Origin: an uncultured delta proteobacterium | Lineage (GTDB): Bacteria > Desulfobacterota > Desulfobacteria > Desulfobacterales > Desulfosalsimonadaceae | Reading direction: 5' to 3' | NCBI GenBank assembly: GCA_963826785.1 | Contig: CAWGYD010000006.1 | Coordinates: 640,001-704,000, forward strand | DNA: 64,000 nucleotides | Shown here: positions 19,588-40,212 of the stretch, piece by piece | Numbering within the stretch: the first letter of the stretch is position 1 | How the letters are laid out: every line of letters begins with the position of its first letter | Made by a program: the position numbers and the translations under genes | The notes under the pieces: generated by a model | Database searches by the model: none | The model's input: only the letters and a program-made list of their open reading frames with translations | Told to the model about the DNA's origin: nothing

Positions 19588-19595
19588 ATGATCTC

Positions 19596-19988: not shown

Positions 19989-20006
19989 GGATATCCCGGG
20001 CAATGG

Positions 20007-21121: not shown

Positions 21122-21167
21122 GGGTTTCCTGATATTTGCTTTTTTTAGCAATTGGGTTTCGGCCTTT

Positions 21168-21255
21168 CTCCCCCCCTTTTTTTCAAAGGGGGGCGGGGGG
21201 GATTTTTTGTAGTGCGATCAAATCCCCCTGAATCCCCCTTTGAAAAGGGGGACTT
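21168..21255. repeat. Inverted pair of C/G-tract REP-like repeats, type A
   Basis: CTCCCCCCCTTTTTTTCAAAGGGGGGCGGGGGGGATTTT and CAAATCCCCCTGAATCCCCCTTTGAAAAGGGGGACTT. Confidence 0.72.
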
Positions 21256-21280
21256 TGGACCCCGGTTCTCCGGGGATTTT

Positions 21281-24200
21281 TTAATTCGCTATCCGTTCAT
21301 TACACGAAAACAGGTCGTCCAACATGATGTTGAAGTGCCGGGCCTCGAAATGGTTCAGCTGGATGGCCCGGGCCGGGCATTCGGATGCGCAGATGCCGCA
21401 CCCCATGCACTTGGCGGCCGCGATTTCCGCCTTATGGTCGCGGTTGACAAACGGCGCCCCATAGGGGCAGGAGTGGACGCAGGTCATGCACGAAATGCAT
21501 TTTGACTGGTCCACCCGGGAAACCTGGGCGCCGACTTCCAGATGCGTCTTTGACAGCACGGTGGCGGCTCTGGCCGCCGCGGCCCGGGCCTGGGAGATGT
21601 TCTCGTCCATGAACTTGGGCGAGTGGGCCAGCCCGCACAGGAAGATCCCTTCACTGGCGAAATCCACCGGCCGCAGCTTCAGGTGGGCCTCCACGAAAAA
21701 GCCGTCCGGCGTTTAACGGCACCTTGAGCATGTTCGACAGGGCGTGATTGGCCGGCGCGGGCGAAATCCCCGTGCTCAGGACCACATGGTCCGCCTCGAT
21801 CTCGATGGGCTCGGGGAAATCCGGGCTGTGAAGCGCCACCAGAAGCCCGTTGTCGTCTGTCACCACCGGCGGTTTTGCCTCATCATAGCGGATGAACACC
21901 ACCCCGGCCCGGCGGGCCGTCTTGTAATATTTCTCCCGGAACCCGTAGGTCCGGATATCCCGGTAGAGGACGAAGATGTTCGCATCCGGGTTTTTCTTTT
22001 TGATGGCCAGCGCATTCTTGACCGCCATGGAGCAGCAGATCCGGCTGCAGTAGGCGCGCTCGTCGTTGCGCGATCCCACGCACTGGATCATGACGATGTT
22101 TTTGCCGGCGCCGTCAAATGTCTGATCATGCAGACCCTTTTCCAGTTCCACCTGGGTGATCACGCTTGGGGATGCATCGATGCGGTACTCGGAAGTTTCT
22201 GCCATGTCCGCCCCGGTGGCCACGATGATGGCGCCGCAGGGGACCTCGACGGGTTCACCGCCGTTTTGAGACAGTTTTGCGGAAAACTTGCCCACATGCC
22301 CGGCAATGCCGGCCACTGCCGTTTCCAGGTGAAGTATCACATGGGGATGTGTTTTGACTTTTTGAACCAGGGAATCGGTGAAATCCGATATCGCCTCGTG
22401 CTCCAGGGTGCCGTGGATGTCGCGCAGATGACCGCCGAGAGATGCGGTCTTCTCCACCAGGTGCACCTTGAAGCCCTGCTCCGCCAGGGACAGGGCCGCG
22501 GTCATGCCGCTCAAGCCGCCCCCGATGACCAGGCCCAGTTGGTTGATGGCAAGCGTTTCCCCCAGCTGGGGGGAAAGATGCCGGGCCCGGGCAATGGACA
22601 TGCGCACCAGTTCGATGGCTTTTTGGGTGGCCGCTTCCGGCTGGGATGCGTGCACCCAGGAGCACTGATCCCGGATATTGGAAAGATCGAACAGGTAGGG
22701 GTTTAGGCCCGCTTCCCGCAGGGTTTCCCGGAACAGGGGCTCATGGGTCCGGGGGGTGCAGGAGGCCACCACGATCCGGTTGAGCCGGTGGGCGGCAATG
22801 GCCTCCTTGACCGACGAGAGGCTGGCATCGGAGCAGGCATACATGGAGTGGGTGGCAAAGATGACGTCGGGATCGTGCTCGATGGCCGCGGTCACCTTTT
22901 CCACATCCACGGTGGAGGCGATATTGATGCCGCAGTGGCAGACAAACACGCCGATTCTGGGCTTCTCATCGGTGATATCGCGTTCCTGCGGATACTCCCG
23001 TTTGGCGACGAGCGTGTTGCGGGCTTTCCCCAGCAGTTCCATGGCCATGGAGGCCGCGCCGCTGGCCTGGGTGACGGTTTCGGGAATATCCTTGGGCTCC
23101 TGGAACACGCCGGCCACAAAGATGCCCGGCCGGGAGGTTTCAAGGGGGGAGAAGCGGTCCGTGGCGGCAAATCCGTATTCGTTGAGCGCGATGCCAAGGC
23201 GTGAAATCGGTTCGGAAACCGTTCTTTTGGGGTCGAGCCCCACAGACAGGACCACCAGGTCGAACTCCCGTTCTTTAATCCCCTCGCCGGTCATAAACCG
23301 CAGCCGAAGGTCCTTGGTGCCGGGAATCTCCAGGACCCGGGAGGGAATGGCTCTTGATATAACGGATGTTGCCCTGGCTTTTGGCGCGTTCGTAATACTG
23401 GTCGAAGTCTTTGCCGAAGGCCCGGATATCCATGTAGAAGATGGCGGCTTCAAGACCGTCGACATGCTCGCCGGCCACCAGGGCCTGCTTGGTGGCGGCC
23501 ATGCAGCAGATGGAGGAGCAGTATTCCTTTTCGCACCGCAAATCCCGGGACCCCACGCACTGGATAAAGGCGATGCGCCGGGCTTCGCGCCGGTCGGAGG
23601 GGCGCAGCACATGGCCGGCAAAGGGCCCGGCGGCTGACAGCATCCGCTCGAACTGGACGCTGGTGAGGACGTTGGCATACCGGCCGAAACCGTATTCGCC
23701 TTTGAGCTCGGCCTCAAATTCCTGAAAACCGGGGGCCAGGATGACCGAGCCGACCTCAAGGGCGATCACTTCTTCTTTCATGGCGTGGTCGATGGCCTCT
23801 TTCTCGCAGGCATCCACGCACGCGCCGCATTCGGAGCAAATGGCGCAGTTTAGACACCGCTCGCTTTCCGCCATGGCCTGATCTTCAGAAAAGGCCGTGC
23901 TCGATTTCCGAAAAATCACGGATGCGCTGGGTTACCGGCAGTTCATCGGCTGCGGCCCGCGGCGTTTTTTCTATGCCTTTGGCCGACGGCAGCAGCTTTT
24001 CCGGCACCGGTTGGAGGGTATCGGCAAACCGCGGCGTTTCCGGGTTGACGCCCCGGACATAGCGGTCGATGGATTCGGCGGCCCGCTTTCCCGCAGCCAC
24101 CGCTTCAATCACCGTGGAAGGCCCGGTGACGATATCCCCCCCGGCAAAGATGCCCGGGATTTCGGTGACGCAGTTGGCATCGGCGATGATGTTTCCCCAG

Positions 24201-25753
24201 GCGTTCACCTTCAGGTCGTGCGCCGCATCGGAAAGCGAGGTATCCGGCTGGCTGCCGATGGCCAGGATCGCCGTGTCCGCGCTCATCTCGAATTCGGACC
24301 CCGGCTCCGGAACCGGCCGTCGGCGCCCGGATGCATCCGGTTCGCCAAGCGTCATCCGGATGCACTTTACCCGGCCCAGCCGGCCGTCGGCGCCGGCGAC
24401 AAATTCCACGGGATTGGTGAGAAACGCAAACCTCACCCCTTCGTCAACGGCATGCCGGATCTCTTCCGGAATGGCGGGGAGTTCGTTTTTGCTCCGGCGA
24501 TAGACGATGGTGACCTTGTCCGCGCCCAGCCGGACGGCGCAGCAGGCGGCATCCATGGCCACGTCCCCGCCGCCGACCACGATCACATGCCCGTTAAGGG
24601 ATGGCTTGTTGTCGGTGGTGCTGGCCCGGTAAAGAAATTCAAGCCCCTGGACCACCCCGGGCAGGTCATCCCCCTTGACCTTTATGGGCGTGCCCTTCTG
24701 GGTGCCGATGCCCACAAATACGGCCTGGTGATCGTTGCGCAGTTGTTCGAAAGAGATGTCTTTGCCCACCCGGCAATTGTAAACAAAGGAGACCCCTTTT
24801 CGCCGGATCAGTTCGACTTCGTAGTCGAGGATGTCCGCCGGGAGGCGGTAGTCCGGGATGCCCCACCGGAGCATGCCGCCCGCAGCCGGCGATGCCTCAT
24901 ACACGCTCACGGCATACCCCCGGTCGGCCAGATCCTGGGCCGCCGTTAAACCCGAGGGGCCGGCGCCGATCACCGCGATTTTTGCAGCATCCGATGCCGG
25001 AATTTTTTCTTCGGGAAGAGCGATCTCCCCCGAGGCTACCAACTCCATTTCTTTGTCTGAGGCAAAGCGCTTCAGCTGCCGGATGGCCACCGCTGAATCG
25101 ACATTTTTCCGGGTGCAGGCACTCTCGCAGGGATGGGTGCAGACCCGGCCGCAGATGGCGGAGAGCGGGTTGCGCTCCCGGATCAGCCGGACCGCCTTGA
25201 CGTATTCCTTTTTTTTGATGAGCTGGATATACCCCTGAACGTTGATGTTTGCCGGGCATGCGGTCTTGCAGGGGGCGTGTCCGAGTTTGAGGATGCCCAC
25301 CTTGTTGGGCACCGCCTGGGGCGAATACTTGGCGATGGCCTTGCGCCTGCCCAGGTTCCGGTTAAACCGGTCATCGAGCTCAACCGGGCAGACCGGGGAG
25401 CAGTCCCCGCAGTCGTTGCAGATCTTCGGGTCGACATAGCTGGGGGATTTTTTGACGGTTGCCGTGAAACGGCCGGGCTCGCCTTCGACGTTGAGCAGCT
25501 CCGAGTAATTCAGGATTTCGATGTTCAGGTTGCGGGCGCACTCCACCAGTTTGGGGGAGACGATGCAGGTGGCGCAGTCGCCCGTGGGAAACGTCTTGTC
25601 CAGGTGGGACATCATGCCCCCGATGGCCCCGCCGCGTTCGACCAGGTAGACCTTGAATCCCGAGTTGGCCAGATCGAGGGATGCCTGGACCCCGGCGATT
25701 CCGCCTCCCTGCACCAGCACCGCGCCGGTGGGTTTTTTTTCATTTTCGACCAT
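21281..25753 (-). CDS. hdrA: Large HdrA/HdrL-type flavoprotein: HdrA module with inserted GltD-like NAD(P)H domain plus second HdrA module; frameshifts ~23900, ~23355, ~21710
   Basis: GGGIAG..LDKTFPTGDCATC; CPANINVQGY..CGRVCTHPCE; GAGPSG; GGGDVAMD; IQCVGSR..YCSSICC; RIGVFVCHCG; second IQCVGSR..CSRICC; C-terminal 2x[4Fe-4S]. Confidence 0.9.
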
Positions 25754-25757
25754 GATA

Positions 25758-26655
25758 TTAAATGTTCCTTGAAATCGTCTGGGCAGTTGCGTTCACGGCA
25801 TTGATGATTTTCGACGGGGAGACCACCAGCTTGTTCAGGCCGAGCCGGTCCGGTGATATGCCCAGGCACAAACCGATCAGCTGGCGTGATATAGATCACC
25901 GGCATGTCATAGCGCCGCCCGGTGGTTTTTTGAATATCGATCTGCCGGAGGTCCAGGTTCACCTGGCACAAGGGGCAGGCCACGGCGATGCAGTCGGCCC
26001 CCGCGGCCTTGGCCATGCCGATAATCGCATCGGACAAGCTCACCACGAGATCGGATCGGGTGGTCAGGGACAGGCTGTTTCCGCAGCATTCCACCTTGCC
26101 GGGCCAGTCCAGGCTTTGTCCGCCCAGGGCCGTGACCAGGGTGTCTATCGACCGGGGGTTTTCCGGGTCGTCGAAACGGGTGACCTCGTGGGGCCGGACC
26201 AGCAGGCACCCGTAATAAGAGGCCACCTTGAATCCGTTCAAGGGGCGGGTGATTGCTTTTTCAAGAAAATCCATGCCGCAGTCTTCGAAAAGCACTTCCA
26301 TCAGATGCTTTACCTTGACCGAACCGTCGTAATCCCGGCCGATGGCATCGGCGATTTTGGCGCGCATGCCCGGATGGTTTTCGATTTCGTAATTTGCCGT
26401 TTTCAGACGGTTGTAGCAGGCGGCGCAGTTCACCACCACATCGAGGCCCATGTCTTTGGCCAGCACCAGGTTCGCCGCCGAAAGACTCGCCGCCAGATAA
26501 CGGTCGGTCTGGTGTCCCGGCGTGGCGCCGCAGCAGGACCAGCCCTTGATTTCGATCATGTCGATGCCCAGCGCCCGGGCCACGGCGAGGCTGGATGCAT
26601 GCTGGTCGCGGGCGGACGATTCCGAGGAACACCCGGGATAATAGGCATATTTCAT
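25758..26655 (-). CDS. hdrB: Heterodisulfide reductase subunit B; frameshift ~25885
   Basis: YAYYPGCS, CCG..CAAC, YYGCLLVRP, ECCG..ACPLCQVNLD; corrected end QLIGLCLG...TAA 25758. Confidence 0.9.
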
Positions 26656-27215
26656 TATAAAATTTCCTTGTTTTGCCTGACTTTGGCAAATATCCGCTTC
26701 ACCGTTTTCCGGTTGGGGCTCCAGGAGGGAAGGATGGCGATTTTTTTCTTCCTGAAGATGACGGGGATCTTGTCCGAGTCCCGTCCGTAGGAGGAAGTGC
26801 CGCTTTTATACAGGGCCATCAGCCCCAGATCATAGGTGCGGCCGAAAATCTTGACGGTCTTGAGAAAAGCCCGGTTGAACAGCGGGATGTTGCCTTCCGG
26901 GACGGCGGCGTTTCGCTCGACGGCCAGTTTGCGCAGCACATCCATGACCGACACCAGATCGATCCCCATGGGGCAGCGGGCATGGCAGGTTTCACACGAG
27001 ACGCACGTCCAGATCAGGCTGTTTGAAAGCAGTTCATTGCCGGCGCCCAGCTGCAGGCGGCGGATCAGTTCGGAAGGGGGAGACGGGACATGGCCTGAAA
27101 CGGTGCACCCGCATGAACATTTACGGCATTGATAGCAAAGACCGATATCCACGCCGGACATCTTTGCCACCGTATCGCGTATCCCTGTTTGGCCTTTTTT
27201 GATTCGAATCGTCAT
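26655..27215 (-). CDS. hdrC: Heterodisulfide reductase subunit C
   Basis: CYQCRKCSCGC and IWTCVSCETCHARCP. Confidence 0.9.
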   Translation of the reverse strand: MTIRIKKGQTGIRDTVAKMSGVDIGLCYQCRKCSCGCTVSGHVPSPPSELIRRLQLGAGNELLSNSLIWTCVSCETCHARCPMGIDLVSVMDVLRKLAVERNAAVPEGNIPLFNRAFLKTVKIFGRTYDLGLMALYKSGTSSYGRDSDKIPVIFRKKKIAILPSWSPNRKTVKRIFAKVRQNKEIL

Positions 27216-27224
27216 ATGATCATC

Positions 27225-29918
27225 CTAATTGCTCAGGTCCCCCACCGTTTCCATCTCGCGCGGCTTTTCCATCGCCTTTTTCATGGCCGCGCCCACCGCG
27301 GAGGGGACGACTTTGCGGTAGACGCTTTCCGGGGGCATCGATTTACCGTCGATGGTTAGCAGGTCCTCGATGCGGATATTGAAAAGCCGTTCGTTTTCCG
27401 TCAGGTACGGCCGTATCAGCTCCCAGTCCGCATCGGTTAAGGGGAGAAACATGCCGCCGTTTAACTGTCCGTCCACCATGATGCCGTGCGGGTCCCGGAT
27501 ATAGATGGCCCCGCCGGAGGCCAGCGAGAAGAGGTTGCCGCCGGGATAGGGCTGGGGCAGGGGAACGATGGCGCCGTCATCATCGAACCGGATGCCGTTT
27601 ACGATGACAAACCCGCCCCCCTGGTGGGGATCTCCGGCCATGAACGATTCGGCCAGAAAGTCGAGCGCCGTGCCGTTGATCACCACCCGGGGCCGCCCCA
27701 CGGAGTTGATGAGCGGGCCGGCCGGCGGCATTGCCCATCACATAGACCACCCCGCCCTTGGCGCCGTACATGAAGGTCTGGCCGACATCGCCGTAGACCA
27801 CCAGTTTGCCGCGCTTGAAAATCTGCCCCAGCTGATCCTGGGCATTGCCGTGAACCGTAACGGCCATCCCGTCGATCCCGGAGGCGAGGTAATCGCCGCG
27901 AGCTCCCGTACACGTCGATGACCACGTCATCCGTGTCCGGTCCGAGTCCGCACCCGACATATCGCTGGCCCGAACACCGGTAGCAGATAAATTTTCGCCA
28001 TCCTTTAATAAATGCGTCCACCAGAAGCGCCGCGTCGCAGTCATCGCCTTCCGGAGGAAACCCATGCGCGTTGATCACCAGGGTGGTCTTCGCCGGAAAG
28101 CGGCGCCCTCAGACAATGGCGGGTGTCAAAATCGATCAGGCGGTAGGGGCTTTTCTCCGCGTCCCCGGCGTCAATGGGCGGGAGGCTGCCGAAGAGGCGG
28201 TCGAGTTCCCCGTGGACAATATGCAGCAGATGGCTTCTTTTCTTGGCACCGGTCGGATATCGAAGATCGTTGAGCAGCGTCAATGACTGAATCGCCCTGC
28301 GGGTAAACCGGGGATTTTTCCCCTTTTTCCGGATCGCCTGGCAGGCGGCGCCCACATCGTCGAAATTCCAGCCGGGAACCGCGTCACGGACAGCGGCGAA
28401 AATATCGGCGGCATCGCCGGTTTCCATGCAGCCGTTGATCCTGCTCTCAATTTCCGGATGGGGCGCCGGTGATCCTTCGTTTTGTAAAATCGCATGATTC
28501 GGATTGCTCCGGCAGGGGAACTGCCGCGCCGAACTTGTCCGTGCAGCTGATCCGCATATTGCCGGCAAGCATCCGGCGCCAGATTGAAGATAAACGCCCC
28601 GCCGTCCGTGTGGCTGCCGCCCCGGGCGTTCCAGTACCGGTCCGCCACCGGGCAGATCCGCTTGTCGTCTTTGGCCAGGCTGGTGAGCGTGGCGTCGATG
28701 GCCTGCTTCTCGGATGCGATCAGACCGACCTGCACCTCTCCGTCCGCGAAGGCGAACACCTGGGGCCGCAGCATGGAGGTGTCGGTGATGCCCAGAAGCT
28801 GGAATTTATTCTTTTCGGGAATGTTGCGGGCGATGATGAAAAACCAGGGGCCGTCGGGCGAGCCGTGGATGTGCGTTGCCTGGATGGCCCGGTAGATCTT
28901 CTGCTTTTCGGCGGGCAGATGGTCAAAATCGAGTTCCGTGGTGGGCGCCAGCGCTTCGATGATGTACTCCAGCGGGTATTTGTAGGTCCGGTTGAGCAGG
29001 TCGAACATGAGGGCGGACACCTCCGTGTCGGTGATAAACTGCGGGAAGATGTTGCGCTGGAGCAGGTATTCGGTAACGCAGTGGTAATTGGCGAAATCGC
29101 CGTTGTGGACCAGGGCCATGTTGATCCCGGCAAAGGGATGGGCGCCGCCGGGATGCCAGACCCGCCCCTTGGTGGGAAACCGCTGGTGGGCGATCCAGGC
29201 ATGGGCGGCCAGATCTTCGATCTTGTAGTATTTTACGATGGCTTCGGCATAGCCGACCACCTTCAGGATCATGATGTTTCGGCCGTGGGACAGGACAAAT
29301 GCCTGCTGATCCTTAAGCGACGCGTAGTATTCCTGGTTGAGCCGGAAACTGTTCTGGTTGACAAACTCGTCTTCGGCTTCCCGGGGGGCGAATCCCTCAA
29401 ACCCGTTTTCTTCTATAAAGGTGGCAAGGACATCTTCCTTCACCCGGACGAAATACCGCCACACATCCGGCGGCCTGACTTCCAGTCCACTGACGGCTGT
29501 CCAGTCGTCCACTTTGTCCAGCGTCGTTTGAGGCTTTCACATCGAAATGGGGCGTGATGTATTTTTCCTCCAGCGCCGGCCGGACCTCCGGGTCCAGATA
29601 GGCCACATGAATCATGTAGCAGGTGTCCAGGATTTCCCGGCTGACCCCCAGCTGCTCCGGGACCAGGCCGACGGCGGCGATTCCCCCGCCTTTTCCGTTT
29701 CCGCGGTTGTGCATCAGCCGCGACGGCTCATATATGTGGCGTCCGGCCACCGGCTGGGTGCAGCAGAAGCCGACGACCCCGCAGCCCCCTTCTTCCTCGC
29801 CCTTTGCGACGCTGCAGGGAAGTTCAAGATTGCGGACGAGGCGTTTTTTTGATTCCAGAAGCTTTTGTATCCTATCCAATTTCCAATGCTCCACGGTAGG
29901 TGTGGTCGAAAATATCAT
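27225..29918 (-). CDS. Glutamate synthase-like Ntn glutamine amidotransferase fused to GltB C-terminal (GltB3) beta-helix; about 6 frameshifts
   Basis: EEEGGCGVVG, MHNRGNGKGGG, AHQRFPT..AHPF..VHNGD, DGPW, LRP; then GDYLASGIDG..HGNAQD, GDVGQTFMYGAKGG, AESFMAG, ASGGAIY. Confidence 0.85.
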
Positions 29919-30089: not shown

Positions 30090-30380
30090 GGAATTTAGAA
30101 AAAAATCAATTATTTAGCTAAACTTACGGATAATGGATTTTTTTAACTTTGGCTAACATGGAACAAGTCCATGCGGGAAGGCGTCATTGTGATCCCGTGA
30201 TATCTTAAAAACCAAAATAAAGGCCTTCGAATCGGAAACTACAGGTTTGACCCCATTCATATTCAGGAGACGTTTAAGGTATCCTTATCATCAAATCAGT
30301 TCAAAATTGCGCGCAGGCGGTGTTTTCAAATCAAGAAGAACCGGGCATGCCCTGTCCGTCTTTAAACCGAAAGCGATGAA

Positions 30381-30707
30381 ATGATGCCGATCACATTGAG
30401 CCGATATGCCCTGGTGGGAATGGTAGGGTTGATGGTGCTGGGCCTGGCCCTGATCGGGGCGGCCCTCTTCCGGCCGAAACCGCAGGCGCGGGATGTGCCG
30501 ACGGGTTGGCACCCGTATCTCATCGGGTACCCGGTTTACGCGCTGATATTTATCTCCTTCGACATGGAAATGATTTTCATGTACCCATGGGCGGTGGTTT
30601 TCGTGAAACACGGGGTAAAGGCTTTTATGGATATGCTGGTATTTATCGGGTTGCTGGCGGCCGGGATCAGTTACGCCTGGGGCATGGGGGGGTTCAAGTG
30701 GGAGTAG
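30381..30707 (+). CDS. nuoA: NuoA-like subunit lacking the YECG loop
   Basis: YALIFISFDMEMIFMYPWAV, YAW..GGFKW. Confidence 0.85.
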   Translation: MMPITLSRYALVGMVGLMVLGLALIGAALFRPKPQARDVPTGWHPYLIGYPVYALIFISFDMEMIFMYPWAVVFVKHGVKAFMDMLVFIGLLAAGISYAWGMGGFKWE

Positions 30708-31600
30708 TGCTGACGGCATTTTATCTGATGGCGGGTCTTGCCGCCGGGGCCTGGCTCACCCAGCAGATCGAACGGCGGGTCTACGGCACCCGGTATGAAG
30801 CGGGCCCTGCCCGTCCGGTCAATTTCACTACCGTGCCGTCAACCCCCCGCGCGGACCGCTGGATGTATGCGGCCGGACCGGTCAGCGCCCTTTTCGGCGT
30901 TGCCGCGGCCCTGGTGGTCATCCCTTTCAGCCGAACCTGGATCGGGGCGGACCTGGGGATCGGCGTCTTCTATTTCATCGTGGTGGTGGATTTTACGGTA
31001 CTGGGGCTGGCCATGGGCGGATGGGGGGCCAACACGCCCGATGGCGCGGAAGTCTACTACCGCGCCACGGCCCAGCTAATCTCCTATGTGATCCCGCTGG
31101 GCCTGGCCTATATCGGGGCCATCATGATGGCAAAATCCCTTTCCACCGTCAAAATCGTGGAGGCCCAGTCCGGGCTCTGGTTCATTGTCACCCAGCCCGT
31201 CGGATTTGCCCTCTATGTGGTGACCGCCCTCATGCAGAGTTTTCGGCCCCCGTTTGTGGAAGCGTTTTCCAGAAAAATCGATTACGGGGTGCTGACCCTC
31301 TATGGCGGCGGATATGCCGTTATCTGGCGCGTGGCCATGTCCGGGCTGCTGTTCGCGGTATCGGCCATGGGCGCGGTCCTGTTTTTGGGGGGCTGGCAGG
31401 GGCCGCTGCTGCCGGGACCGGTATGGATGCTGCTTAAGACCTTGCTGATGATGCTTTTGCTCACCGTTGCCGGATCGCAAATCCAGCCGCTGACGACGCA
31501 CCAGATGCTTCAGTTTTCCTGGAAGGTGCTCACGCCGGTGGGGCTGGCCAATGTTTTGCTGGTGGGGCTGGAAATCCTGCTGGGGGTGGGAGTGAAATGA
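30707..31600 (+). CDS. nuoH: Degenerate NuoH-like subunit
   Basis: GTG overlapping nuoA stop; DLGIGVFY, GGWGAN, RATAQLISY, SLSTVKIVEAQ, LFLGGWQGP, SWKVLTP. Confidence 0.8.
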   Translation: MLTAFYLMAGLAAGAWLTQQIERRVYGTRYEAGPARPVNFTTVPSTPRADRWMYAAGPVSALFGVAAALVVIPFSRTWIGADLGIGVFYFIVVVDFTVLGLAMGGWGANTPDGAEVYYRATAQLISYVIPLGLAYIGAIMMAKSLSTVKIVEAQSGLWFIVTQPVGFALYVVTALMQSFRPPFVEAFSRKIDYGVLTLYGGGYAVIWRVAMSGLLFAVSAMGAVLFLGGWQGPLLPGPVWMLLKTLLMMLLLTVAGSQIQPLTTHQMLQFSWKVLTPVGLANVLLVGLEILLGVGVK

Positions 31601-32336
31601 TACTGCATCCGATGGCCCAATGGGCCTCCTTCTTCATCTTTGCCTTTATCTCCGTGGCCGGCGCCGTCGGGATGGCTACCACCATGAGCATGTTCCGGTC
31701 CGGCATTTTCCTGATGGCCTCCTTCATCGGGGTGGCGGGCCTGTTTATCCTGCTGCTGGCCGACCTGCTGGCCCTGCTGCAGGTGATGATGTACATCGGC
31801 GGCATGCTGGTGATGATCCTGTTCATGGTGATGTTTTCACACGATCCCGGCGGCTCCATGATGGCGGGGATGAACATGTCCCCGGTGGAGGATTTCTTCT
31901 CCGCGGGCATCGTCCCCGAAAAGATGGAGCATATGGACATGAAAGGGATGTCCATGACCACCCCGGTAAAAAAACTGGCAGCGGTCATCGGGGTGATCAC
32001 CGGAATGGTACTGGTGGCCCTGCTGCTGCTCCAGCCAGTCTGGAAGGTGGCCCAACACCTCCCGGAAACCGATTCGGCAAAAAAAGTGGGAGACCTGCTC
32101 ATGGGCAAATACATGATGGCCTTCGAAGGGGCCGGCGGGCTGATTCTCATCGGTATTTTCGGCGCGGTGCTGATGGGGCGCGCCGGCCGGTTCTCAAATG
32201 ATCCCGGCCGGGAAGACCGTGCGGGGAAAAAAGGCGATCCCCAGCCCATCGACGAAGACCGGCTCGAACCGGTCCGGCCCCTGCCCGTTTCCGGAGAAAT
32301 CAAATTCCCGACACCCACAGGGATGACATGCCATGA
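31597..32336 (+). CDS. nuoJ: NuoJ-like subunit with Met-rich loop; probable 1-nt deletion ~32298, restored end ...QIPDTHRDDMP*
   Basis: LALLQVMMYIGGMLVMILFMVM, GKYMMAFE..LILIG; restored TGA overlaps nuoK ATG. Confidence 0.8.
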
Positions 32337-32647
32337 TGACCATCCCCATTACCCCATATCTTGTCGTGGCGGCCATCCTCTTTGCCGTGGGGATATATGC
32401 CGTCATCGCCCAGCGGACGGCCGTGATGATCCTGATGGGAATCGAGGTGCTGCTCAATGCGGTGGGGCTCAACATCGTGACCTTCTGGCGCTTCGTGAAT
32501 CCCGGTGATTACAGCGGCCAGATGTTTCTCATCATCATCGTCACCGTGGGGGCGGTGGAAATGGGCGTGGGGCTGGCCATCATGATGCTTTTGTACCGCA
32601 ACCGCAAGACGGTTCAGGTGGACAAGTTCACGGAACTCAAAGGATGA
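32333..32647 (+). CDS. nuoK: NuoK-like subunit
   Basis: MGIEVLLNAV, GQMF, GAVEMGVGLAI...LKG. Confidence 0.9.
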   Translation: MMTIPITPYLVVAAILFAVGIYAVIAQRTAVMILMGIEVLLNAVGLNIVTFWRFVNPGDYSGQMFLIIIVTVGAVEMGVGLAIMMLLYRNRKTVQVDKFTELKG

Positions 32648-34605
32648 ACGGGCTTTTGCTCATAGCGGTGCCCGTATTTCCCCTGGCGGCCGCACTGGTC
32701 ATTGCCGCCTCCGGCCCAAGGCTTGCCCGGATCGGGGGCCGAATCGGGGGATGGATCAGCACGGCTGCAACCGCCGCCTCACTGATCAGCCTGTACTTCC
32801 TGTCGGGAAATGTCCCGGTAAAATTAGATGCCCGATGGGGCGTCGGGGGCGCATATGAGCTCACCGTGGGGCTCCTGCTCGATTCGCTTTCGTTTTATAC
32901 CGCCATATTCGTTGCGGCAGTGGCGTTTTTCGTCAATCTCCATGCAGTGGGGTACATGGGCAAAGATCCGGGCCGGTCCCGGTTTTTCGCCCAGATGGCC
33001 TTTTTTACCGGCGCCATGCTGATGCTGGTGCTGGCCGGTTCCTTTATCGTCCTGTTTGCCGCCTGGGAATGGGTGGGGCTGGCCTCTTTTCTGCTCATCG
33101 GGTTCTGGTACGACCGGAAGGAGACGCCCGGGGCGGCGAGAAACGCATTTTTGATCACCCGGACGGGGGATGCGGGGTTCCTCCTGGGATGGCTGCTGGC
33201 CCTGTTCCTGGCCCACACCACGGATATGGGGGGATTTCTGGAAAAAGTGGGGGATGGTTCGGCTGCTCCCGGAATGCTGACACTGGTCGCGCTTCTGCTG
33301 CTGGCAGGGGCCGCGGGAAAAAGCGCGCAATTGCCGCTTTCCGCCTGGTTGCCGCCGGCCATGGCCGGCCCCACCCCGGTCTCCGCCCTGATCCATTCGG
33401 CCACCATGGCCGCGGCCGGGGTTTACCTGATCCTGCGCCTCTATCCGCTCTTTCAGGCGGCCCCCCACGTGTTGACCGTCATTTTATGGATGGGGGCGGC
33501 AACCGCACTTTTCGCGGCATTGACCGCCACCGTGCAGAACGATCTCAAACGGATTCTGGCCTGGTCCACCATTTCACAACTGGGCGAAATGTTTTTTGCC
33601 CTGGGCCTGGCCGGACCCCTGGCGGCCCTGTTTCACCTGACCACCCATGGGTTTTTCAAGGCCACCCTGTTTTTGGCTGCCGGTTCCGTAGAGCATGGCG
33701 CAAAGACCCGCGATATTTCCAGGACGGGACGCCTGTGGCGAAAAATGCCGGCAACCGCGACCATATTTGCCCTTTCGGGTCTGGCCCTTTCCGGCATCTG
33801 GCCCTTTTCCGGTTTTTTCAGCGAGGACCGGATACTGGCCATGGCTGCATCCCGGGGAACCTTTTACCCCGTGTTCCTGGTGCTGCTGATCGCCATTTCC
33901 GGCATTTACATCAGCCGGGCCGCCATGGCCGTTTTCGGCCCCTGGCCCGGGGCACCGGCCCCCAGGGCCAGCGAACCGGGCAGGGTGGTTCTGTTTGCAA
34001 TGTCGGGGCTGGCCATTTTTGCCGCGGGTGCCGGTTGGGCATTGTCGGGCAGGATCGGGCATCTGGTGGCGTTTGTGCAAGGCCCCGAACTGGCCCTGTA
34101 CTGGAAAATTGCAGCTGTTCTGGCGGGCCTGGCCGGTATCGGGTACGGCGCCGGGCATGTATTCCGATACGGCCCCCGGCCGGCGCTGGGAGAAATTTTT
34201 TCCCTTCTGGAGAGAAATCTGAACAGGGGCACGCAAGGATTTGGCCGCATGGCCATTCTTGGCGCATCCGGGTTGACGGCATGTGAACGGGGGCTGGACC
34301 GGGCGGCAGGGGCCGTAAAGAAGCTGTCTCTGGATACCGCGGCGGTAGTGACCGTCCTTGAGGAAAACCTGGACCGGGGTGCCCGGGCGGCCACAGGATG
34401 GACCCTGAAAACCGCTCTCGGGGTGGACAGGATCGAACTGGCCGGATTTGCCCTCGGGATGAACCGTTTTGCCGGCCTGCTCGGGCGGTCGGGGGGCCGG
34501 CTTGTGCAGCTGCAGTCAGGCAAGCTCTATCTCTATACGCTGGGCCTTTTCATCTGGGCGCTTCTGGTGGCGCTCGGCGGATTCCTGGTCTGGTTTGCCC
34601 TTTAG
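32644..34605 (+). CDS. nuoL: NuoL-like antiporter subunit with extended repetitive transverse helix
   Basis: WEWVG, ITRTGD, GKSAQLPL..WLP.AM.GPTPVSALIHSATM, HGFFKATLF, LQSG..Y. Confidence 0.88.
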   Translation: MNGLLLIAVPVFPLAAALVIAASGPRLARIGGRIGGWISTAATAASLISLYFLSGNVPVKLDARWGVGGAYELTVGLLLDSLSFYTAIFVAAVAFFVNLHAVGYMGKDPGRSRFFAQMAFFTGAMLMLVLAGSFIVLFAAWEWVGLASFLLIGFWYDRKETPGAARNAFLITRTGDAGFLLGWLLALFLAHTTDMGGFLEKVGDGSAAPGMLTLVALLLLAGAAGKSAQLPLSAWLPPAMAGPTPVSALIHSATMAAAGVYLILRLYPLFQAAPHVLTVILWMGAATALFAALTATVQNDLKRILAWSTISQLGEMFFALGLAGPLAALFHLTTHGFFKATLFLAAGSVEHGAKTRDISRTGRLWRKMPATATIFALSGLALSGIWPFSGFFSEDRILAMAASRGTFYPVFLVLLIAISGIYISRAAMAVFGPWPGAPAPRASEPGRVVLFAMSGLAIFAAGAGWALSGRIGHLVAFVQGPELALYWKIAAVLAGLAGIGYGAGHVFRYGPRPALGEIFSLLERNLNRGTQGFGRMAILGASGLTACERGLDRAAGAVKKLSLDTAAVVTVLEENLDRGARAATGWTLKTALGVDRIELAGFALGMNRFAGLLGRSGGRLVQLQSGKLYLYTLGLFIWALLVALGGFLVWFAL

Positions 34606-34620
34606 CGCAAGGAGAAGAAC

Positions 34621-36102
34621 ATGCTCAATCTCACCATATTTTTTCCTATGCTGGCCGGGCTGGCCCTGCTGGTTCTGCCGGGTTCAAAACCGGAATGGGT
34701 CCGGCGGGGGGCGTTGGCGACAGCAGGGCTGAACCTCGTTTTCAGCCTGGTCTTGTGGTTCGGCTACGATCCGGCCGGTTCGATCCTCCAATGGCGCACC
34801 ACCGCTGCATGGATCCCCAGCATCGGGGCTTCCTATGACGTGGCGGTGGATGGAATTTCCCTGCCGCTGATTGCGCTGACCGCCCTGCTGACATTTCTGG
34901 TGATGATTTACGTGCTGCCGCAGAAAGATAAGGTCAAGGCGCACGCCCTTTTGTTTCTGTTGATGGAGACCGGCCTCATCGGCCTGTTCTCGGCCCGGGA
35001 CCTGCTGCTGTTCTACCTGTTTTTCGAGGTGGGCCTGGTCCCCATGTATTTCATCATCGGCATCTACGGCCACGAGCAGCGCCGGTATGCGGCCGTCAAG
35101 TTCTTCCTGTACACCCGGGCAGGGTCCCTGTTCATGCTCCTTTCCTTCCTGGGGCTCTATCTCAACACGGACCCGCTCACTTTTTCCCTGGCGGACATCA
35201 TCGCGGCCCGCCCGTTTGCCGGCCGGCCGGTGGCCGCCGCCCTGGCCTTTGCCGGCATGCTGCTGGGATTCGGGGTGAAAATCCCCACCTTCCCCATCCA
35301 CAACTGGCTGCCGGATGCCCATGTGGAGGCCCCCACCGAGGGGAGCGTCATCCTGGCGGGAATTCAGCTGAAGATGGGCGGATACGGGCTGATCCGGATC
35401 CTGCTGCCCATCCTGCCGGAAACGGCCAGGCAATATGGATGGGTGCTGCTGGCCCTGGCGGTGGTTTCCCTGTTGTACGGGGCGCTGGCCGCATTGGCCC
35501 AGAATGATTTCAAACGCCTCATCGCGTATTCCTCCATCAACCACATGGGTTACGTGATGCTGGGGGCGGCCGTATGGGCCCTGTCGGAAAATCCCGACAT
35601 CCGTCAGCTGGGGTTGAATGGTGCGGTCTACCAGATGGTTAGCCATGGTCTGCTCACCGGCGGGATGTTTTTCATGGTCGGCATCCTCCAGGATGCCTCG
35701 GGCACCCGTGACCTGAGCCGCTTCGGGGGATTGATGGGCCGGCTTCCCCTGTACTCCGGTCTGCTGGGGCTGCTTGCGTTCGGCTCCCTGGGGCTTCCCG
35801 GCCTGTCGGGGTTTGTGGCGGAATTCCAGGTGATCGGCGCCACGGTGGATTTTCGGCTCTGGGCGGCCATTCTGGTGGTCATTTCACTGATCATCACCAC
35901 GGCCGTATATCTGAAGGTGCTGGTGGCGATCATGATGGGGGAGCCGGCGGCGGACCTGCCGGCCATGCATGACATGGGGGCGGGGCAGACGTGGGCGGTG
36001 GCGCCACTGGCGTTTTTGTCCCTGCTGATCGGCATCCTTCCCTATTACCTGCTGCAGGTGATCGCCGGAACCACCCGGTGGATTTCCCGGATCGGGATCT
36101 GA
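34621..36102 (+). CDS. nuoM: NuoM-like antiporter subunit
   Basis: DGISLPL, FFEVGLVPMY, KIPTFPIHNWLPDAHVEAP, LKMGGYG, GFVAEF. Confidence 0.9.
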   Translation: MLNLTIFFPMLAGLALLVLPGSKPEWVRRGALATAGLNLVFSLVLWFGYDPAGSILQWRTTAAWIPSIGASYDVAVDGISLPLIALTALLTFLVMIYVLPQKDKVKAHALLFLLMETGLIGLFSARDLLLFYLFFEVGLVPMYFIIGIYGHEQRRYAAVKFFLYTRAGSLFMLLSFLGLYLNTDPLTFSLADIIAARPFAGRPVAAALAFAGMLLGFGVKIPTFPIHNWLPDAHVEAPTEGSVILAGIQLKMGGYGLIRILLPILPETARQYGWVLLALAVVSLLYGALAALAQNDFKRLIAYSSINHMGYVMLGAAVWALSENPDIRQLGLNGAVYQMVSHGLLTGGMFFMVGILQDASGTRDLSRFGGLMGRLPLYSGLLGLLAFGSLGLPGLSGFVAEFQVIGATVDFRLWAAILVVISLIITTAVYLKVLVAIMMGEPAADLPAMHDMGAGQTWAVAPLAFLSLLIGILPYYLLQVIAGTTRWISRIGI

Positions 36103-36103
36103 T

Positions 36104-37555
36104 ATGGGCGGCGGCGCATGCCCCATGGAACTCTGGGCCATTTACCCGGAGCTGGTCATTGCGGGACTGGCCCTGGCCCTGGTGCCGGTGGCCGGTTGGG
36201 TCCGGGGCCGCGGTGTTCAAGTGCCGGTTTTAACCGCCATGGCGGGTGTTGTTCTGGCCATGGGGCTGACCGCGCGCATGCTTGGCTGGGCACCCATGTC
36301 CATTTTCTGCGGCACCTATGCGGTGGACGGTTTCGGTAACGGGTTCAAGCTTATCATCGAGGCCGGGGCGCTGATTACCCTGATCCTCTGCCGGGCTTAT
36401 TTCCGGGATCACGCGCAGTTGGCCCACGCCCCGCCGGCCATCCTGTTTTCCACCCTGGGATGCATGGGGCTTGCCTCAAGCCTGGATCTGGTTCTGATCG
36501 TTTTGTTTCTCCAGATGCTTTCCCTGGCCTCCTACCTCCTGGTGGGACTGCGGCGCGACGATCCCCTGGCCAATGAAGCCATGCTCAAGTATTTTATCTA
36601 TGCGGCTGCCGCCCTGGCCATCATGGCCTATGGCCTCACCTTCCTATATGGTTTGACCGGCAGCCTGAACATCAACCGGATCGGTGCGCTTCTTACGCAA
36701 CAAGGGCCCGGGGTCTGGCTGGCGGTGTCCCTGGGGCTGCTGCTGATGGGGTATGCATTTGAAATGACGGTGGTGCCGTTTCATTTCTGGGCACCCGATG
36801 TCTACCAGGGAAGCAGCGCCCCCATCGCCGCCTTTTTGTCTGTGGTGCCCAAGGTGGCCGGGTTTGCGGGGTTATTGCGTCTGCTGCTGGCCGTGTACGC
36901 CGGGGGAAGGGTCCACTGGCCCGACCTGATGGCCGTCCTGGCGGCCGTCACCATGGTGCTGGGCAACCTGGCCGCCCTGCGGCAGAAACGGTTGAAGCGC
37001 CTGCTGGCCTACTCCAGCATCGCCCAGGCCGGGTATATGCTCATGGCACTGGCGGCGGCCGAAACCGTTCCCGGGGCTGTCAGCGCGATGGGATATTACC
37101 TGGCGGCGTACCTGTTCATGAATTTCGGTGCCTTTGCCGTGGTCTCCCAGGTGGAAAGAACCTTTGGCACCGACAGCCTCGACGCGGTAAAAGGGCTTGG
37201 CCGCATCGCCCCGTTTCCTTCGGCCGTGCTCGCCCTTTCCCTGCTGTCCCTGGCCGGCATTCCGCCCCTTGCGGGATTTGCCGGAAAAATCCTGCTGCTG
37301 GCCGCGGCCATGAAAGCCAATTACCTGTGGCTGGCGATCCTTGCCGTGATCAATATGACCGTGGCGCTTTACTATTATGTCGCCGTTATCGCCCATCTCT
37401 ACACCCGTGCGCCTGACCCCGGCCTTCTGCTTCCGGAAACGGGTCGGGAATACAGCCTTGCGGCCGGGATCTGCCTGGCCGGCACCCTTTTGTTCGGCAT
37501 CTTCCCTGAACTGCTCCTGTCGCTTACCCGCTTCCTGCCCAAACTGATGCATTAA
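36104..37555 (+). CDS. nuoN: NuoN-like antiporter subunit with altered charged pair
   Basis: EAMLKYF, VPFHFWAPDVYQG, PKVAGF, KRLLAYSSIAQAGY, GIPPLAGFAGK. Confidence 0.88.
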   Translation: MGGGACPMELWAIYPELVIAGLALALVPVAGWVRGRGVQVPVLTAMAGVVLAMGLTARMLGWAPMSIFCGTYAVDGFGNGFKLIIEAGALITLILCRAYFRDHAQLAHAPPAILFSTLGCMGLASSLDLVLIVLFLQMLSLASYLLVGLRRDDPLANEAMLKYFIYAAAALAIMAYGLTFLYGLTGSLNINRIGALLTQQGPGVWLAVSLGLLLMGYAFEMTVVPFHFWAPDVYQGSSAPIAAFLSVVPKVAGFAGLLRLLLAVYAGGRVHWPDLMAVLAAVTMVLGNLAALRQKRLKRLLAYSSIAQAGYMLMALAAAETVPGAVSAMGYYLAAYLFMNFGAFAVVSQVERTFGTDSLDAVKGLGRIAPFPSAVLALSLLSLAGIPPLAGFAGKILLLAAAMKANYLWLAILAVINMTVALYYYVAVIAHLYTRAPDPGLLLPETGREYSLAAGICLAGTLLFGIFPELLLSLTRFLPKLMH

Positions 37556-37918
37556 TGCCATTTGATGATTATTGTATGATCTGAGGGAATGAAAAAGAAC
37601 GGCAATGGGTGTTAAAAAAGGTAAACCAGGAGTTCATATGCCCGGGTCAATTGCTTATCGATCTAAGGTGAAATTTAAAAAATTCAAAAAAGATCAGGGG
37701 TGCCAAATTTTTCATCAGCGAATGAAAAGAGTGATTATAATTGATATCTTCACCGGATGAAGTGGATTCAAAAATTATTTTTGCAAGCCACGCGGCACAT
37801 TTCGGCATTGCACGGTCAACAGACTGGCCGTATATTTATGAACAATCATTCAACTCTATGTATCCGCTGCGGTCATTTCAGCTTGAGGCGGAAAATATAA
37901 ATGCAAGGGAGAACAATA

Positions 37919-38359
37919 ATGGCAAGCAAAACATTGAAAATTGGGATTATGCCCCGAGAAGAATATAGAAAACGATCCATCGCCATAGCGAGAGGCGAAT
38001 ATGAACCCAAAAGAACCGAACCGAAAGTCTGGTTTGATTCCATCAAATCCATGGCGCAGATTCTGAGCAGCGAAAACCGTGAACTCCTGAAGGTCATCAA
38101 AGAGCGAAAACCCGCCTCTTTAAAAGAACTGGAGATGGCCACCGGAAGAAGGCGAAGCAACCTGTCACGCACATTGAATACCATGCAGCGTTATGGCATC
38201 GTCGAAATGGTCCGGCAGAACCGGGCGGTTCGACCGATTGTCAAGGCTACTGAATTCAAGGTGGAATTCGGCCTCGATCAGAATTACACCCGTATGGAGC
38301 GGGAGCGGCCCAGCAAGCGCCGCTACAAAAAAGAAGCCGTGGGCCGGGAAAAACGGTAG
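37919..38359 (+). CDS. HTH DNA-binding protein (HVO_A0114/antitoxin-like)
   Basis: LKIGIM...VWFDSIKSMAQILSSENRELL..I....PASLKELE..TGR..SNLSRTL. Confidence 0.75.
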   Translation: MASKTLKIGIMPREEYRKRSIAIARGEYEPKRTEPKVWFDSIKSMAQILSSENRELLKVIKERKPASLKELEMATGRRRSNLSRTLNTMQRYGIVEMVRQNRAVRPIVKATEFKVEFGLDQNYTRMERERPSKRRYKKEAVGREKR

Positions 38360-38450: not shown

Positions 38451-39689
38451 TCAGGTCAGATCCGTTTCCGCAGCACGGGAATGCTTCTCATAGAGCAGGG
38501 TCATGGGGGTGGCGGTGACCCCGTGGGCCAGAATCGAGGCGCAGATTACCAGGGTGCCGATGGACCAGATCATTTCCATGTTGGTTTTGCGGTAAGCAAA
38601 AGAGATGTAATAAAGTGAGGAAATGCCGATGGGACCGAACCAGCCGATAAACAGTCGGTCCCGGAAAGAGGTGAGTGGACGGAAATAGCGGCCGAATAAA
38701 AATATCCCCGGCAGCCGTCTGAACGCCAGTATGAGCAGGCAGAGCACAATGCCGGCCGATCCGAGATCCATCCACAGATCCCACGGAATCACCATTCCCA
38801 GCAGGACAAAGACGGGAATGGTGAAATAATTGTTCACCGCTTCCTGTACCCGGATATCCTCCACCTGGGCGTGCTCCTTCACCCTCATTTTGAAGGCCAG
38901 TCCGGCGATAAAGACGGCGAAGATGCCGTCACTGCGGATGAGTTTGGCCGCCCCCAGGGCGAGCAGGGCCATTGCCACGGAATACCCCAGGATATGAATT
39001 TCGGCGATCCACTCATATTTGCGCGTCACACGCAGGATCGATCCTGTCAGAAAGCCGATGGCGCCTCCGATCAGGGCGGCGACCCCGACTTCCCACAGGA
39101 TCACCCCGACCACCCCCCACGGCAGAATCGATTTGACCGAATGCCCCATGACCAGCAGCGGAAAAAGGACCAGCACATAGGCCAGTCCGTCATTGCTGGC
39201 GGATTCCGCGGATAAAAAATGGCGAAGCCGTCCGGGGATGGAGCGGTCGGCCAGTTTGCCGGTCACGATTGACGATGCCAGTACGGGATCGGTGGGCGTC
39301 AGCGCCGTTCCGATCAGCATGGCCACCCAGAAAGGGAGATCGAGGAAGAAGAAGGTCATCAGTCCGGCAGCGGCTGCCATGAACGGCATCATTAAAAGGA
39401 GTATCAAAACGATGGAGCCCGCGTATTGACGCAGGAAATCACCGGGGATGCGCAGGGCTACGCTCACCAGTGCAATCCCCAGGGTGATCCGGGAGAGTTC
39501 TTCCACGATGTCCATCCTGAGCTGCCAGCTGCCGGGATGAACCAGCTGGAAACCGGCCGGACCGATGGCCACGCCCAGAACCAGGGCCAGAAGCGGAACG
39601 GAGAGATACAGCCGCTGAAAACCCGAATAGGTTCCCAGCAGGATGAGAATGGCGGCAAAAAGGGTATAAAGCAGGTTTATATCGTGCAT
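38451..39689 (-). CDS. Cation:proton antiporter (CPA1, NhaP/Nha1-like)
   Basis: LTPTDPVLASSIV, AESASNDG, FIGWFGPIG; start ATG 39689. Confidence 0.88.
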   Translation of the reverse strand: MHDINLLYTLFAAILILLGTYSGFQRLYLSVPLLALVLGVAIGPAGFQLVHPGSWQLRMDIVEELSRITLGIALVSVALRIPGDFLRQYAGSIVLILLLMMPFMAAAAGLMTFFFLDLPFWVAMLIGTALTPTDPVLASSIVTGKLADRSIPGRLRHFLSAESASNDGLAYVLVLFPLLVMGHSVKSILPWGVVGVILWEVGVAALIGGAIGFLTGSILRVTRKYEWIAEIHILGYSVAMALLALGAAKLIRSDGIFAVFIAGLAFKMRVKEHAQVEDIRVQEAVNNYFTIPVFVLLGMVIPWDLWMDLGSAGIVLCLLILAFRRLPGIFLFGRYFRPLTSFRDRLFIGWFGPIGISSLYYISFAYRKTNMEMIWSIGTLVICASILAHGVTATPMTLLYEKHSRAAETDLT

Positions 39690-39723
39690 GGCCTTTTTGT
39701 CAGGTGCATACCCGCATTCAGGA

Positions 39724-40212
39724 TCAGAAAACCGTTCCCACGCCCAGGCCGAAGCTGATGCGGGGAAATCCCCCGGACTCGGGCTTCCATGTCCAGATGC
39801 GGCCGTTGATGACCGGGTATACATACCTGTAGTCGCCGATGGGCCGGGTTTCACCCCCCTCGATTTCACCGGCCGCGGTAACCAGCGTTCCCGGTTGATA
39901 CACCGCCGGATCCAGAAACTGATCCGAGACGACCCGGAAACGACCGCCGGTGTTTTTTTCCGTCTGGGGCCGGAAGTCCGAGTCCAGCGGATACTGGAGA
40001 ACGGTCATGACGGACCCTTTTTCCCGGTTCTCCACTGAGATCACCGCTCCTCCCAGTATGGCAAATTCGCCTTTAAAACGTTGTGGCGATGCCTGCAGGG
40101 TTTTGAAGTCGCCTTTGTAGGTGACTCTTGAGGTCACTTCCCTGGGTATTTTTGCTGCACAGCCGATGAACAGTCCGACTGTCAACAGTATGATGATCAT
40201 CTTTATTCGCAT
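39724..40212 (-). CDS. Slp family outer-membrane lipoprotein
   Basis: Lipobox FIGC; LGG.VI..EN, LQYPLD...RP, GRF....FLDPAVY..G..VT, Y.YP. Confidence 0.85.
   Translation of the reverse strand: MRIKMIIILLTVGLFIGCAAKIPREVTSRVTYKGDFKTLQASPQRFKGEFAILGGAVISVENREKGSVMTVLQYPLDSDFRPQTEKNTGGRFRVVSDQFLDPAVYQPGTLVTAAGEIEGGETRPIGDYRYVYPVINGRIWTWKPESGGFPRISFGLGVGTVF

Follow-up and report, generated by a model that had tools for sequence, protein, structure and literature searches.

A membrane-arm-only complex I operon in an uncultured Desulfobacterota bacterium as a candidate non-respiratory ion or metal transporter

The 64,000-nucleotide stretch of DNA analysed here (the window), from an uncultured bacterium of the Desulfobacterota, carries on its plus strand, at positions 30381-37555, seven genes coding for homologues of all the membrane subunits of respiratory complex I, in the order nuoA-H-J-K-L-M-N. 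Genes for the redox-carrying peripheral arm are absent from this operon, which is referred to as headless in the following. The operon is real and conserved, and it is a variant of the complex I-Mrp superfamily. In the best-supported reading it would encode a stand-alone, non-respiratory ion or metal transporter, and the evidence narrows towards copper or soft metals. A transporter of this kind had been proposed in a first-pass annotation of the window, and the proposal is in agreement with the absence of a head in 43/43 relatives, the loss of quinone-site and E-channel residues and the absence of orphan B/C/D genes. The statement of the same annotation that the operon fits neither complex I nor Mrp also holds, as B/C/D/I are missing from the operon, MrpE/F/G are not found, and NuoA and NuoH are present. 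How complex I couples redox chemistry to pumping is still disputed, and a natural membrane arm that has no redox input, has a rewired NuoN ion pair and is under selection would provide a test of the central axis acting alone.

Occurrence and ancestry of headless operons

Relatives were collected by searching a NuoH alignment against one genome per species; among the best 79 of 487 candidate loci, 43 are close relatives (NuoH identities of 43-75%) and 36 have a NuoH of the canonical type. The neighbourhood search for A-H-J-K-L-M-N operons lacking B/C/D/I that the first-pass annotation suggested thus returns 43 related loci (denoted by L numbers), in which B/C/D/I/E/F/G are absent inside the operon without exception, all seven genes being visible in 35 loci and eight loci being cut by contig ends. 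By the titles of the records, headless operons occur in at least nine phyla (Desulfobacterota, Chloroflexota, Verrucomicrobiota, Pseudomonadota, Cyanobacteria, Actinomycetota, Vulcanimicrobiota, Deinococcota and Bacteroidota) and on two plasmids, from Methylobacterium and Rhodopseudomonas; among the cultured carriers, besides these plasmids, are Deinococcus marmoris and Deinococcus saxicola. Near-identical copies (L062 and L063), flanked by CsoR, Csp and DUF305 genes, are present in one D. marmoris assembly. Only one of 40 relatives of the host genome has the operon, and the closest copies are from Desulfobacterales, a hint at the likely affiliation of the host.

The headless operon is under purifying selection. 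When compared with the two closest full relatives, the ratio of nonsynonymous to synonymous substitution rates (dN/dS, Nei-Gojobori) is 0.12-0.30 for all seven genes, values that are rough because dS is near 1, and it is 0.00-0.30 in eight other pairs. The annotation had named absence of the arrangement from other genomes, with dN/dS near 1, as the outcome that would speak against it; what is observed is an arrangement present at 43 loci with ratios far below 1.

The host genome (4.43 Mb, 87.8% complete) does not appear to supply a head from elsewhere. Genome-wide family searches give five matches for NuoD, five for NuoB and four for NuoC, all of them in four other complex-I-like clusters on contigs C1, C3 and C4. 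C6, the contig of the window, has no match in these searches, which covered B, C and D. All four NuoD loci adjoin their own NuoH, and the NuoH of the window is the only one without a head. An orphan nuoBCDI cluster, the finding regarded in the annotation as contrary to its proposal, is not seen for B/C/D in the host genome at this completeness, and neither is a full-length relic head of the type described below. The separate complete nuo operon that had been considered does exist: the four other clusters, each with its own B/C/D, are at C4:29-42 kb, C4:388-404 kb, C3:397-408 kb and C1:722-729 kb, and among them one has 14 subunits, one has a G-like gene with no E/F seen, one has four antiporter-like subunits and one is Ehr/hydrogenase-like.

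Gene order alone is not diagnostic, since locus L086 (Zixibacteria) shares the A-H-J-K-L-M-N order yet keeps 13/13 of the canonical NuoH residues checked and has an orphan B-C-I-D cluster in its genome. L086 is outside the headless clade; it is a split complex I operon, and the operon of the window is unlike it. The loci L086, L208 and L210 of this one genome comprise the operon with canonical residues, the orphan B-C-I-D cluster and a further operon in which no nuoI is seen.

The sister group of the headless operons has the form A-X-H-J-K-L-M-N, of which 13 loci were obtained from 301 sampled Actinomycetota genomes. X joins a remnant of NuoB, in most cases an HMBD metal-binding domain, a His/Met/acidic linker and a remnant of NuoD in one protein. 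The His and the Tyr of the NuoD quinone site are missing from it, and in many X proteins the only cysteines, if any, are those of the HMBD motifs; as judged from these sequences, X is a redox-dead NuoB-NuoD relic. Headless operons are monophyletic in 7/7 single-gene trees (local support 0.12-0.98), as are headless and relic-bearing operons taken together (7/7, local support 0.95-1.0), and both splits have a support of 100 in the Shimodaira-Hasegawa-like approximate likelihood ratio test (SH-aLRT) when H, K, L, M and N are concatenated (trees of 29 and 38 complete operons, with thin outgroup sampling). The nearest sampled outgroup is an actinobacterial A-B-C-H-I-J-K-L-M-N operon. In the single-gene trees the operon clusters apart from its hosts' own complexes.

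Relatives of X are numerous (1034 among 8000 candidates scored). X occurs on 13 plasmids, and of the five examined, four have the complete operon, with genes for copper or heavy metals close by, and one has a truncated form. A NuoJ profile run over 401 actinomycete genomes gives 11 loci, nine of them in the sister clade with a shorter relic, and two actinomycete shorter-relic loci adjoin CsoR-HMA-P1B ATPase genes; the Rubrobacter-type relic profile has no match in 401 actinomycete genomes (two candidates scored per genome). Full-length X is found in 0/41 genomes with a headless operon, in which there are only HMBD or NuoD fragments. The most parsimonious order would be that an 11-subunit complex I lost its redox ligands and gained a methionine core, after which the relic head was lost in one branch. 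In a Chloroflexaceae genome (L206:4259-9514), a lone degenerate NuoD/hydrogenase-like subunit lies with antiporter-like genes, with no NuoH or NuoB seen; this gene was considered as a head candidate and rejected, as it has its own antiporter-like subunits.

Remodelling of the membrane arm

Residues were surveyed in 39-44 headless, 16-17 relic-bearing and 18-31 canonical sequences per subunit, using Escherichia coli (Ec) numbering as the reference. Headless NuoH has lost the quinone-site and E-channel residues Ec R46, D63, E157, D213, E216, E218, E220, E228, E241, R286 and R291; the seven acidic residues from E157 to E241 in this list are all replaced or deleted in the window's NuoH, whereas they are canonical in 30-31 of 31 controls. 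The amphipathic helix after transmembrane helix 1 (TM1) and the acidic TM5-6 loop are also lost. Eight TM helices are kept, the fold is retained in the structure comparison (Z of 24-25, root mean square deviation of about 4.6 Å over about 290 residues), and D98 and E188 are new invariant residues. NuoA has lost most of its TM1-TM2 loop, which clamps the peripheral arm; what is left is short, and the Ec K46 column is gapped in 42/42 sequences. The membrane arm appears to have been rebuilt in such a way that the redox-carrying half would no longer dock.

The proton axis of NuoM is intact (Ec E144, K234, H248, K265, H322, H348 and E407). NuoL keeps E142, D176, K226, H251, H331 and K339, its TM12 lysine (Ec K399) is Glu394, a change present in 36/42 headless sequences, and the region before its last TM helix is lengthened. 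This NuoL change was considered as an Mrp trait and rejected, because MrpA has Lys, not Glu, at TM12. NuoN keeps K250 and K395, and 39/39 sequences have Q137/E220 in place of the ion pair between TM5 and TM7 (Ec E133/K217). The carboxylates D61/E63 of NuoA (Ec D79/E81) and E38/E76 of NuoK (Ec E36/E72) are preserved, and so is Y66 of NuoJ (Ec Y59; Tyr in 43/43). D84 of NuoA and D59 of NuoK are clade-specific. In relic-bearing NuoJ (L154-L166) the TM3 tyrosine is changed into Met and a Glu is present three residues further, which is reminiscent of the Na+ ligand of MrpA.

Clade-specific methionines are found in NuoA (M62, M64, M67) and NuoK (M32, M77, M84), and TM3 of NuoJ is lined by M64, M65, M70, M73 and M77. 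Those at positions 62, 64 and 67 of NuoA, 64, 65, 70, 73 and 77 of NuoJ, 32 and 77 of NuoK and 174 of NuoN are common to both sister clades and rare in controls. The methionine content is 10.6% for core NuoJ (3.2% in canonical sequences) and 5.5% for NuoA (2.9%), whereas NuoL, NuoM and NuoN are not enriched. The positions of Ec J V58, J I63 and K A73, which line or gate the water wire from A D79 to K E36 (bioRxiv 10.64898/2026.01.27.702182), are all Met in the headless operon.

Headless NuoJ also has an insertion between TM3 and TM4, of 36-200 residues across the loci, that is present in neither relic-bearing nor canonical NuoJ. It has at least three His in 34/43 loci and includes a full HMBD domain in L045; in the window it has 36 residues, with nine Met and one His. 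The predicted model of NuoJ is weak (predicted template modelling score of 0.40) and served for the helix count only; when considering the general topology of NuoJ, we take this His/Met loop to be on the cytoplasmic side.

Metal genes, proposed function and alternatives

A Pfam scan of 256 neighbour proteins of headless loci (238 cluster representatives of 295 picked open reading frames and 18 more) identifies DUF305, CsoR, Csp, P1B ATPases, CusA/B/F, multicopper oxidases, CopB, CopC/D, HMA, YHS and DUF411. At least one metal gene is present at 24/43 loci (17/27 long loci), in at least five phyla, a count that is circular because the queries come from the same loci; the control has 0/35 metal-gene loci and is mostly from Pelagibacteraceae. 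In whole-genome family searches, DUF305 or HMBD is found within 15 kb of 18/43 headless NuoH genes versus 0/61 canonical NuoH genes of the same genomes (about 0.6 expected). In one of these 18 cases the match is to the HMBD within NuoJ itself, and the Deinococcus and Ignavibacteria loci are kin.

The best reading, at a probability slightly below even, is that the headless operon encodes a proton-driven Cu(I)/Ag(I) exporter, of which we infer the assembly, substrate, direction and coupling. Antiport of Cu(I) and H+ is suggested by the loss of redox input, the preserved proton axis and the soft ligands at the cation site. The seven subunits, descended from a complex I with 11 subunits, would act as a secondary transporter that takes no electrons. 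As in Mrp, protons would enter down the proton-motive force via NuoL and NuoM, which keep most of their charged axis, and the change of charge would be relayed to the N-K-J-A junction, equivalent to the Na+ site of Mrp and the E-channel gate of complex I. At this junction methionines would be placed around the carboxylates A D61/E63, K E38/E76, the new N E220, H D98 and J D56, a geometry that would suit Cu(I) or Ag(I). The NuoJ loop would collect or sense the metal at the cytoplasmic side, a role that in the sister clade would fall to the relic head with its metal-binding domain, and NuoH may persist as a scaffold or entry vestibule. The net reaction would be Cu(I)/H+ antiport, most likely export, which is in agreement with the HMBD in the relic head, the HMBD or His residues in the NuoJ loop, the copper-type neighbours and the regulation of a related Marinobacter cassette together with cop genes (PMC8233155).

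A wider proposal, more tentative and falling short of even probability, is that the evolution of complex I would have been reversed here, with first the redox cofactors and then the whole peripheral arm being shed and the E-channel gate being converted into a Met-lined Cu(I)/Ag(I) path. The outcome would be the first member of the complex I-Mrp superfamily to exchange a transition metal for H+, present in at least nine phyla on metal-resistance islands, the form in the window being the minimal, membrane-only end state. If the operon does move copper, it would represent a new class of metal exporter and a categorically new function.

Several observations weigh against copper export. No metal gene is found at 19/43 related loci (some of them short), no copper or other metal gene is near the window's operon or its three Desulfobacterota relatives, and CsoR/CueR operator boxes upstream of the window's operon are not above the level in shuffled sequence. 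The NuoJ insertion of the window is the shortest, with a single His, and the methionines are placed by alignment with E. coli rather than by modelling the complex. With its seven subunits the machine is also costly when compared with CopA or CDF exporters. Finally, residues called essential in complex I as well as in Mrp are altered by NuoL K399E and NuoN E133Q/K217E, and the coupling therefore has to be unlike that of either.

It is unlikely, although worth weighing, that complex I gave rise anew to an Mrp-like Na+(K+)/H+ antiporter or a pH regulator, encoded by the operon, in which the NuoJ loop only senses metal stress and the operon rides on metal-resistance islands. Mrp shows that the fold can work without redox input (PMC7419157), and in marine actinomycetes related operons have been interpreted as adaptations to salt (PMC3314556, PMC6676996, PMC6002675). 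CPA1 and Trk genes are present in the window, and Na+/cation exchangers (NhaA; a Na/Ca exchanger) flank 2/43 relatives, but metal neighbours outnumber such Na+ transporters 24 to 2, and the Na+ ligands are missing, with Tyr at the MrpA E706 position in 43/43 and Gln at the MrpD GluTMH5 position in 39/39 sequences. Methionine is a poor ligand for Na+, MrpE/F/G are lacking, and most carriers are from soil, sediment or freshwater-type sources, as the records describe them. It is improbable that the machine takes up Cu, supplies cuproenzymes with it or is a proton channel gated by metal. The Met tracks do not reveal direction, and CopC/CopD with a cbb3-type oxidase are found at L052 and SCO1/CtaG at L082; most neighbours are nevertheless for efflux or detoxification (P1B ATPases, CusA, multicopper oxidases, CopB, Csp and CsoR), and the terminal oxidase encoded near the operon in the window is of the copper-free bd type.

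Quite improbable, too, is a pump driven by a soluble partner encoded elsewhere, for which Dab/Mps, with a NuoL homologue and a carbonic-anhydrase-like protein (PMC5700660), is the precedent in the superfamily. This would fit the retention of NuoH under selection, but there is no gene family that most loci have beside the operon; the most frequent neighbours, the two genes of a two-component system, are at 9-10/43, and it is as a set of seven genes that the operon has passed between phyla and onto plasmids. It is highly improbable that the operon provides an alternative membrane arm for the NuoBCDI(EFG) of one of the host's own complexes: NuoD is present in 37/41 host genomes (four in the window's genome), one relative (L060) is directly behind a canonical complex I operon and split operons such as L086 exist, yet NuoA and NuoH have lost their docking and quinone-site elements by deletion or replacement, whereas the true split operon L086 has kept 13/13 of the NuoH residues checked, each NuoD of the window's genome is already paired with its own NuoH, and the operon clusters apart from the hosts' complexes. 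Decay of a complex I duplicate is largely refuted. The frameshift in nuoJ as assembled would agree with it, but it looks like an assembly error, other genes of the window are also in pieces, and the low dN/dS and the clade-specific invariant residues bear out the earlier argument that the coordinated sequence changes speak against decay.

The locus and comparison with known systems

Table 1. Coordinates of the genes of the headless operon in the window
Feature	Coordinates	Strand	Remarks
NuoA homologue, 108 aa	30381..30707	+	profile match
NuoH homologue, 300 aa	30698..31600	+	profile match; database protein P0001 = 300 aa
NuoJ homologue, ~246 aa (probable)	31597..32336	+	assembled frame extends to 32508
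NuoK homologue, 104 aa	32333..32647	+	profile match
NuoL homologue, 653 aa	32644..34605	+	profile match
NuoM homologue, 493 aa	34621..36102	+	profile match
NuoN homologue, 483 aa	36104..37555	+	profile match

The seven open reading frames match PF00507 (NuoA), PF00146 (NuoH), PF00499 (NuoJ), PF00420 (NuoK) and PF00361 (NuoL/M/N), and the best NCBIfam models for the three PF00361 proteins are NuoL, NuoM and NuoN, i.e. Nuo and not Mrp. The tight coupling described in the first pass, with nuoA overlapping nuoH and nuoH overlapping nuoJ, is confirmed: the first overlap is 10 nucleotides when GTG 30698 is taken as the nuoH start, ATGA overlaps are found at nuoH/nuoJ and nuoK/nuoL, and the nuoL-nuoM and nuoM-nuoN gaps are 15 and 1 nucleotides. 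As the genes abut or overlap, there is no space for nuoB/C/D/I, MrpE/F/G or other genes. The NuoJ frame as assembled continues 175 nucleotides into nuoK. This is probably due to a one-base assembly error near 32300, the true stop overlapping the nuoK start, because a 4-nucleotide nuoJ/nuoK overlap is present in 31/43 related loci, NuoJ has 246 residues in the two shortest close relatives, and one extra base at 32300 is seen in one 205-nucleotide public contig (single contig, depth 2.6).

Divergent from the operon, at 15639-29918 on the minus strand, are glutamate-synthase-like and HdrABC-like/MTHFR genes, several of them broken into overlapping frames, which suggests indel errors throughout the assembly. 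An AT-rich 15-nucleotide inverted repeat at 30099-30144 in the divergent intergenic region, beside a near-consensus sigma-70 site on the minus strand, is a candidate operator; the sole promoter-like site upstream of the operon faces the opposite direction. In the public sequencing runs no RNA run is listed for the locus, and the best DNA share is 0.12. Downstream, a helix-turn-helix protein of the HVO_A0114 family, possibly an orphan antitoxin or regulator, is encoded at 37901-38359 (+) in a stretch of lower GC content between nuoN and the CPA1 gene (38451-39869). The latter is 895 bp from the operon, in agreement with the earlier placement within 1 kb; a functional link, and with it CPA1 as an operon partner, is rejected, since the gene is on the opposite strand and the scan of 256 proteins encoded around related loci gives no CPA1 (PF00999). 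The host's CopA-like and CusA-like genes are on other contigs than the operon. A metallo-β-lactamase-rhodanese gene precedes three related operons (L043:1-2331, L044:7710-9095, L050:3644-5044), with YeeE sulfur transporters also in L043, and the same metallo-β-lactamase-rhodanese/YeeE genes are at C3:390-392 kb in the host, about 5 kb from a different complex-I-like cluster.

With complex I, the headless operon shares all seven membrane subunits in canonical order, the NuoH fold, the NuoM axis, most of the NuoL axis and K E36/E72, A D79/E81 and J Y59. It differs in the absence of B/C/D/I/E/F/G, the lost NuoH quinone-site and E-channel residues, the short NuoA loop, the change of the N ion pair from E/K into Q/E and of the L TM12 Lys into Glu, the Met-lined A/J/K and the His/Met loop of J. 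Ehr and group 4 hydrogenase complexes likewise put complex-I-like membrane modules to other uses, but they keep NuoB/NuoD homologues, which the headless clusters lack. The Cu(I) transporters CusA and Ctr have Met tracks along the transmembrane path, in folds unrelated to those of the headless operon; in the latter, Met is conserved and enriched, and a spatial clustering would follow from E. coli numbering.

The Na+ site of Mrp lies among the counterparts of J Y59, NuoK and N E133, and transport is powered by protons flowing through the large subunits (PMC7419157). The redox-free, proton-motive-force-driven use of the same antiporter-like subunits and the cation path at the N/K/J equivalents are points of likeness, whereas Mrp has MrpE/F/G, two large subunits (three in the headless operon), no NuoA/H, and His/Glu Na+ ligands that are absent from the headless operon. 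Dab/Mps has one or two antiporter-like subunits with DUF2309 and is without A/H/J/K (PMC5700660). In Marinobacter atlanticus CP1, a complex-I-like cassette is located among cop genes and co-regulated with them, and ion pumping has been proposed; it has a NuoD-like gene, no nuoMN is reported, and copper redox is proposed as the energy source (PMC8233155). By its description only, this cassette is inferred to belong to the sister clade.

Related relic-bearing operons are already in print, and the fully headless form is unexplained in the literature searched, in which no paper on it was found (subscription journals were mostly outside the scope); the wording of PMC12142623 and PMC6295475 refers only to the normal complex I membrane arm. 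Genomes that miss subunits have been scored as lacking complex I (PMC4453560). Headless operons are routinely counted as respiratory NADH dehydrogenases, and this calls for caution in annotation. The closest published system is the 'partial nuo operon' nuoAHJKLMN of Salinispora, Streptomyces and Kocuria, read as a marine or osmotic adaptation (PMC3314556, PMC6676996, PMC6002675). As far as described there, it is also without a redox head, patchy and horizontally acquired, but it has a 'hypothetical' gene between nuoA and nuoH, where the window's nuoA overlaps nuoH. The published extra gene fits the relic-bearing clade: actinomycete operons of the published layout, whose subunits have similar lengths, represent it in the tree in place of the Salinispora proteins and group with the sister clade at SH-aLRT 100, and the extra gene after nuoA matches the NuoB-NuoD relic in 4/8 layout-matching operons, the other four having an unannotated gap of similar size. 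If the copper reading is correct, these 'marine adaptation' genes of actinomycetes would be recast as probable metal-homeostasis genes.

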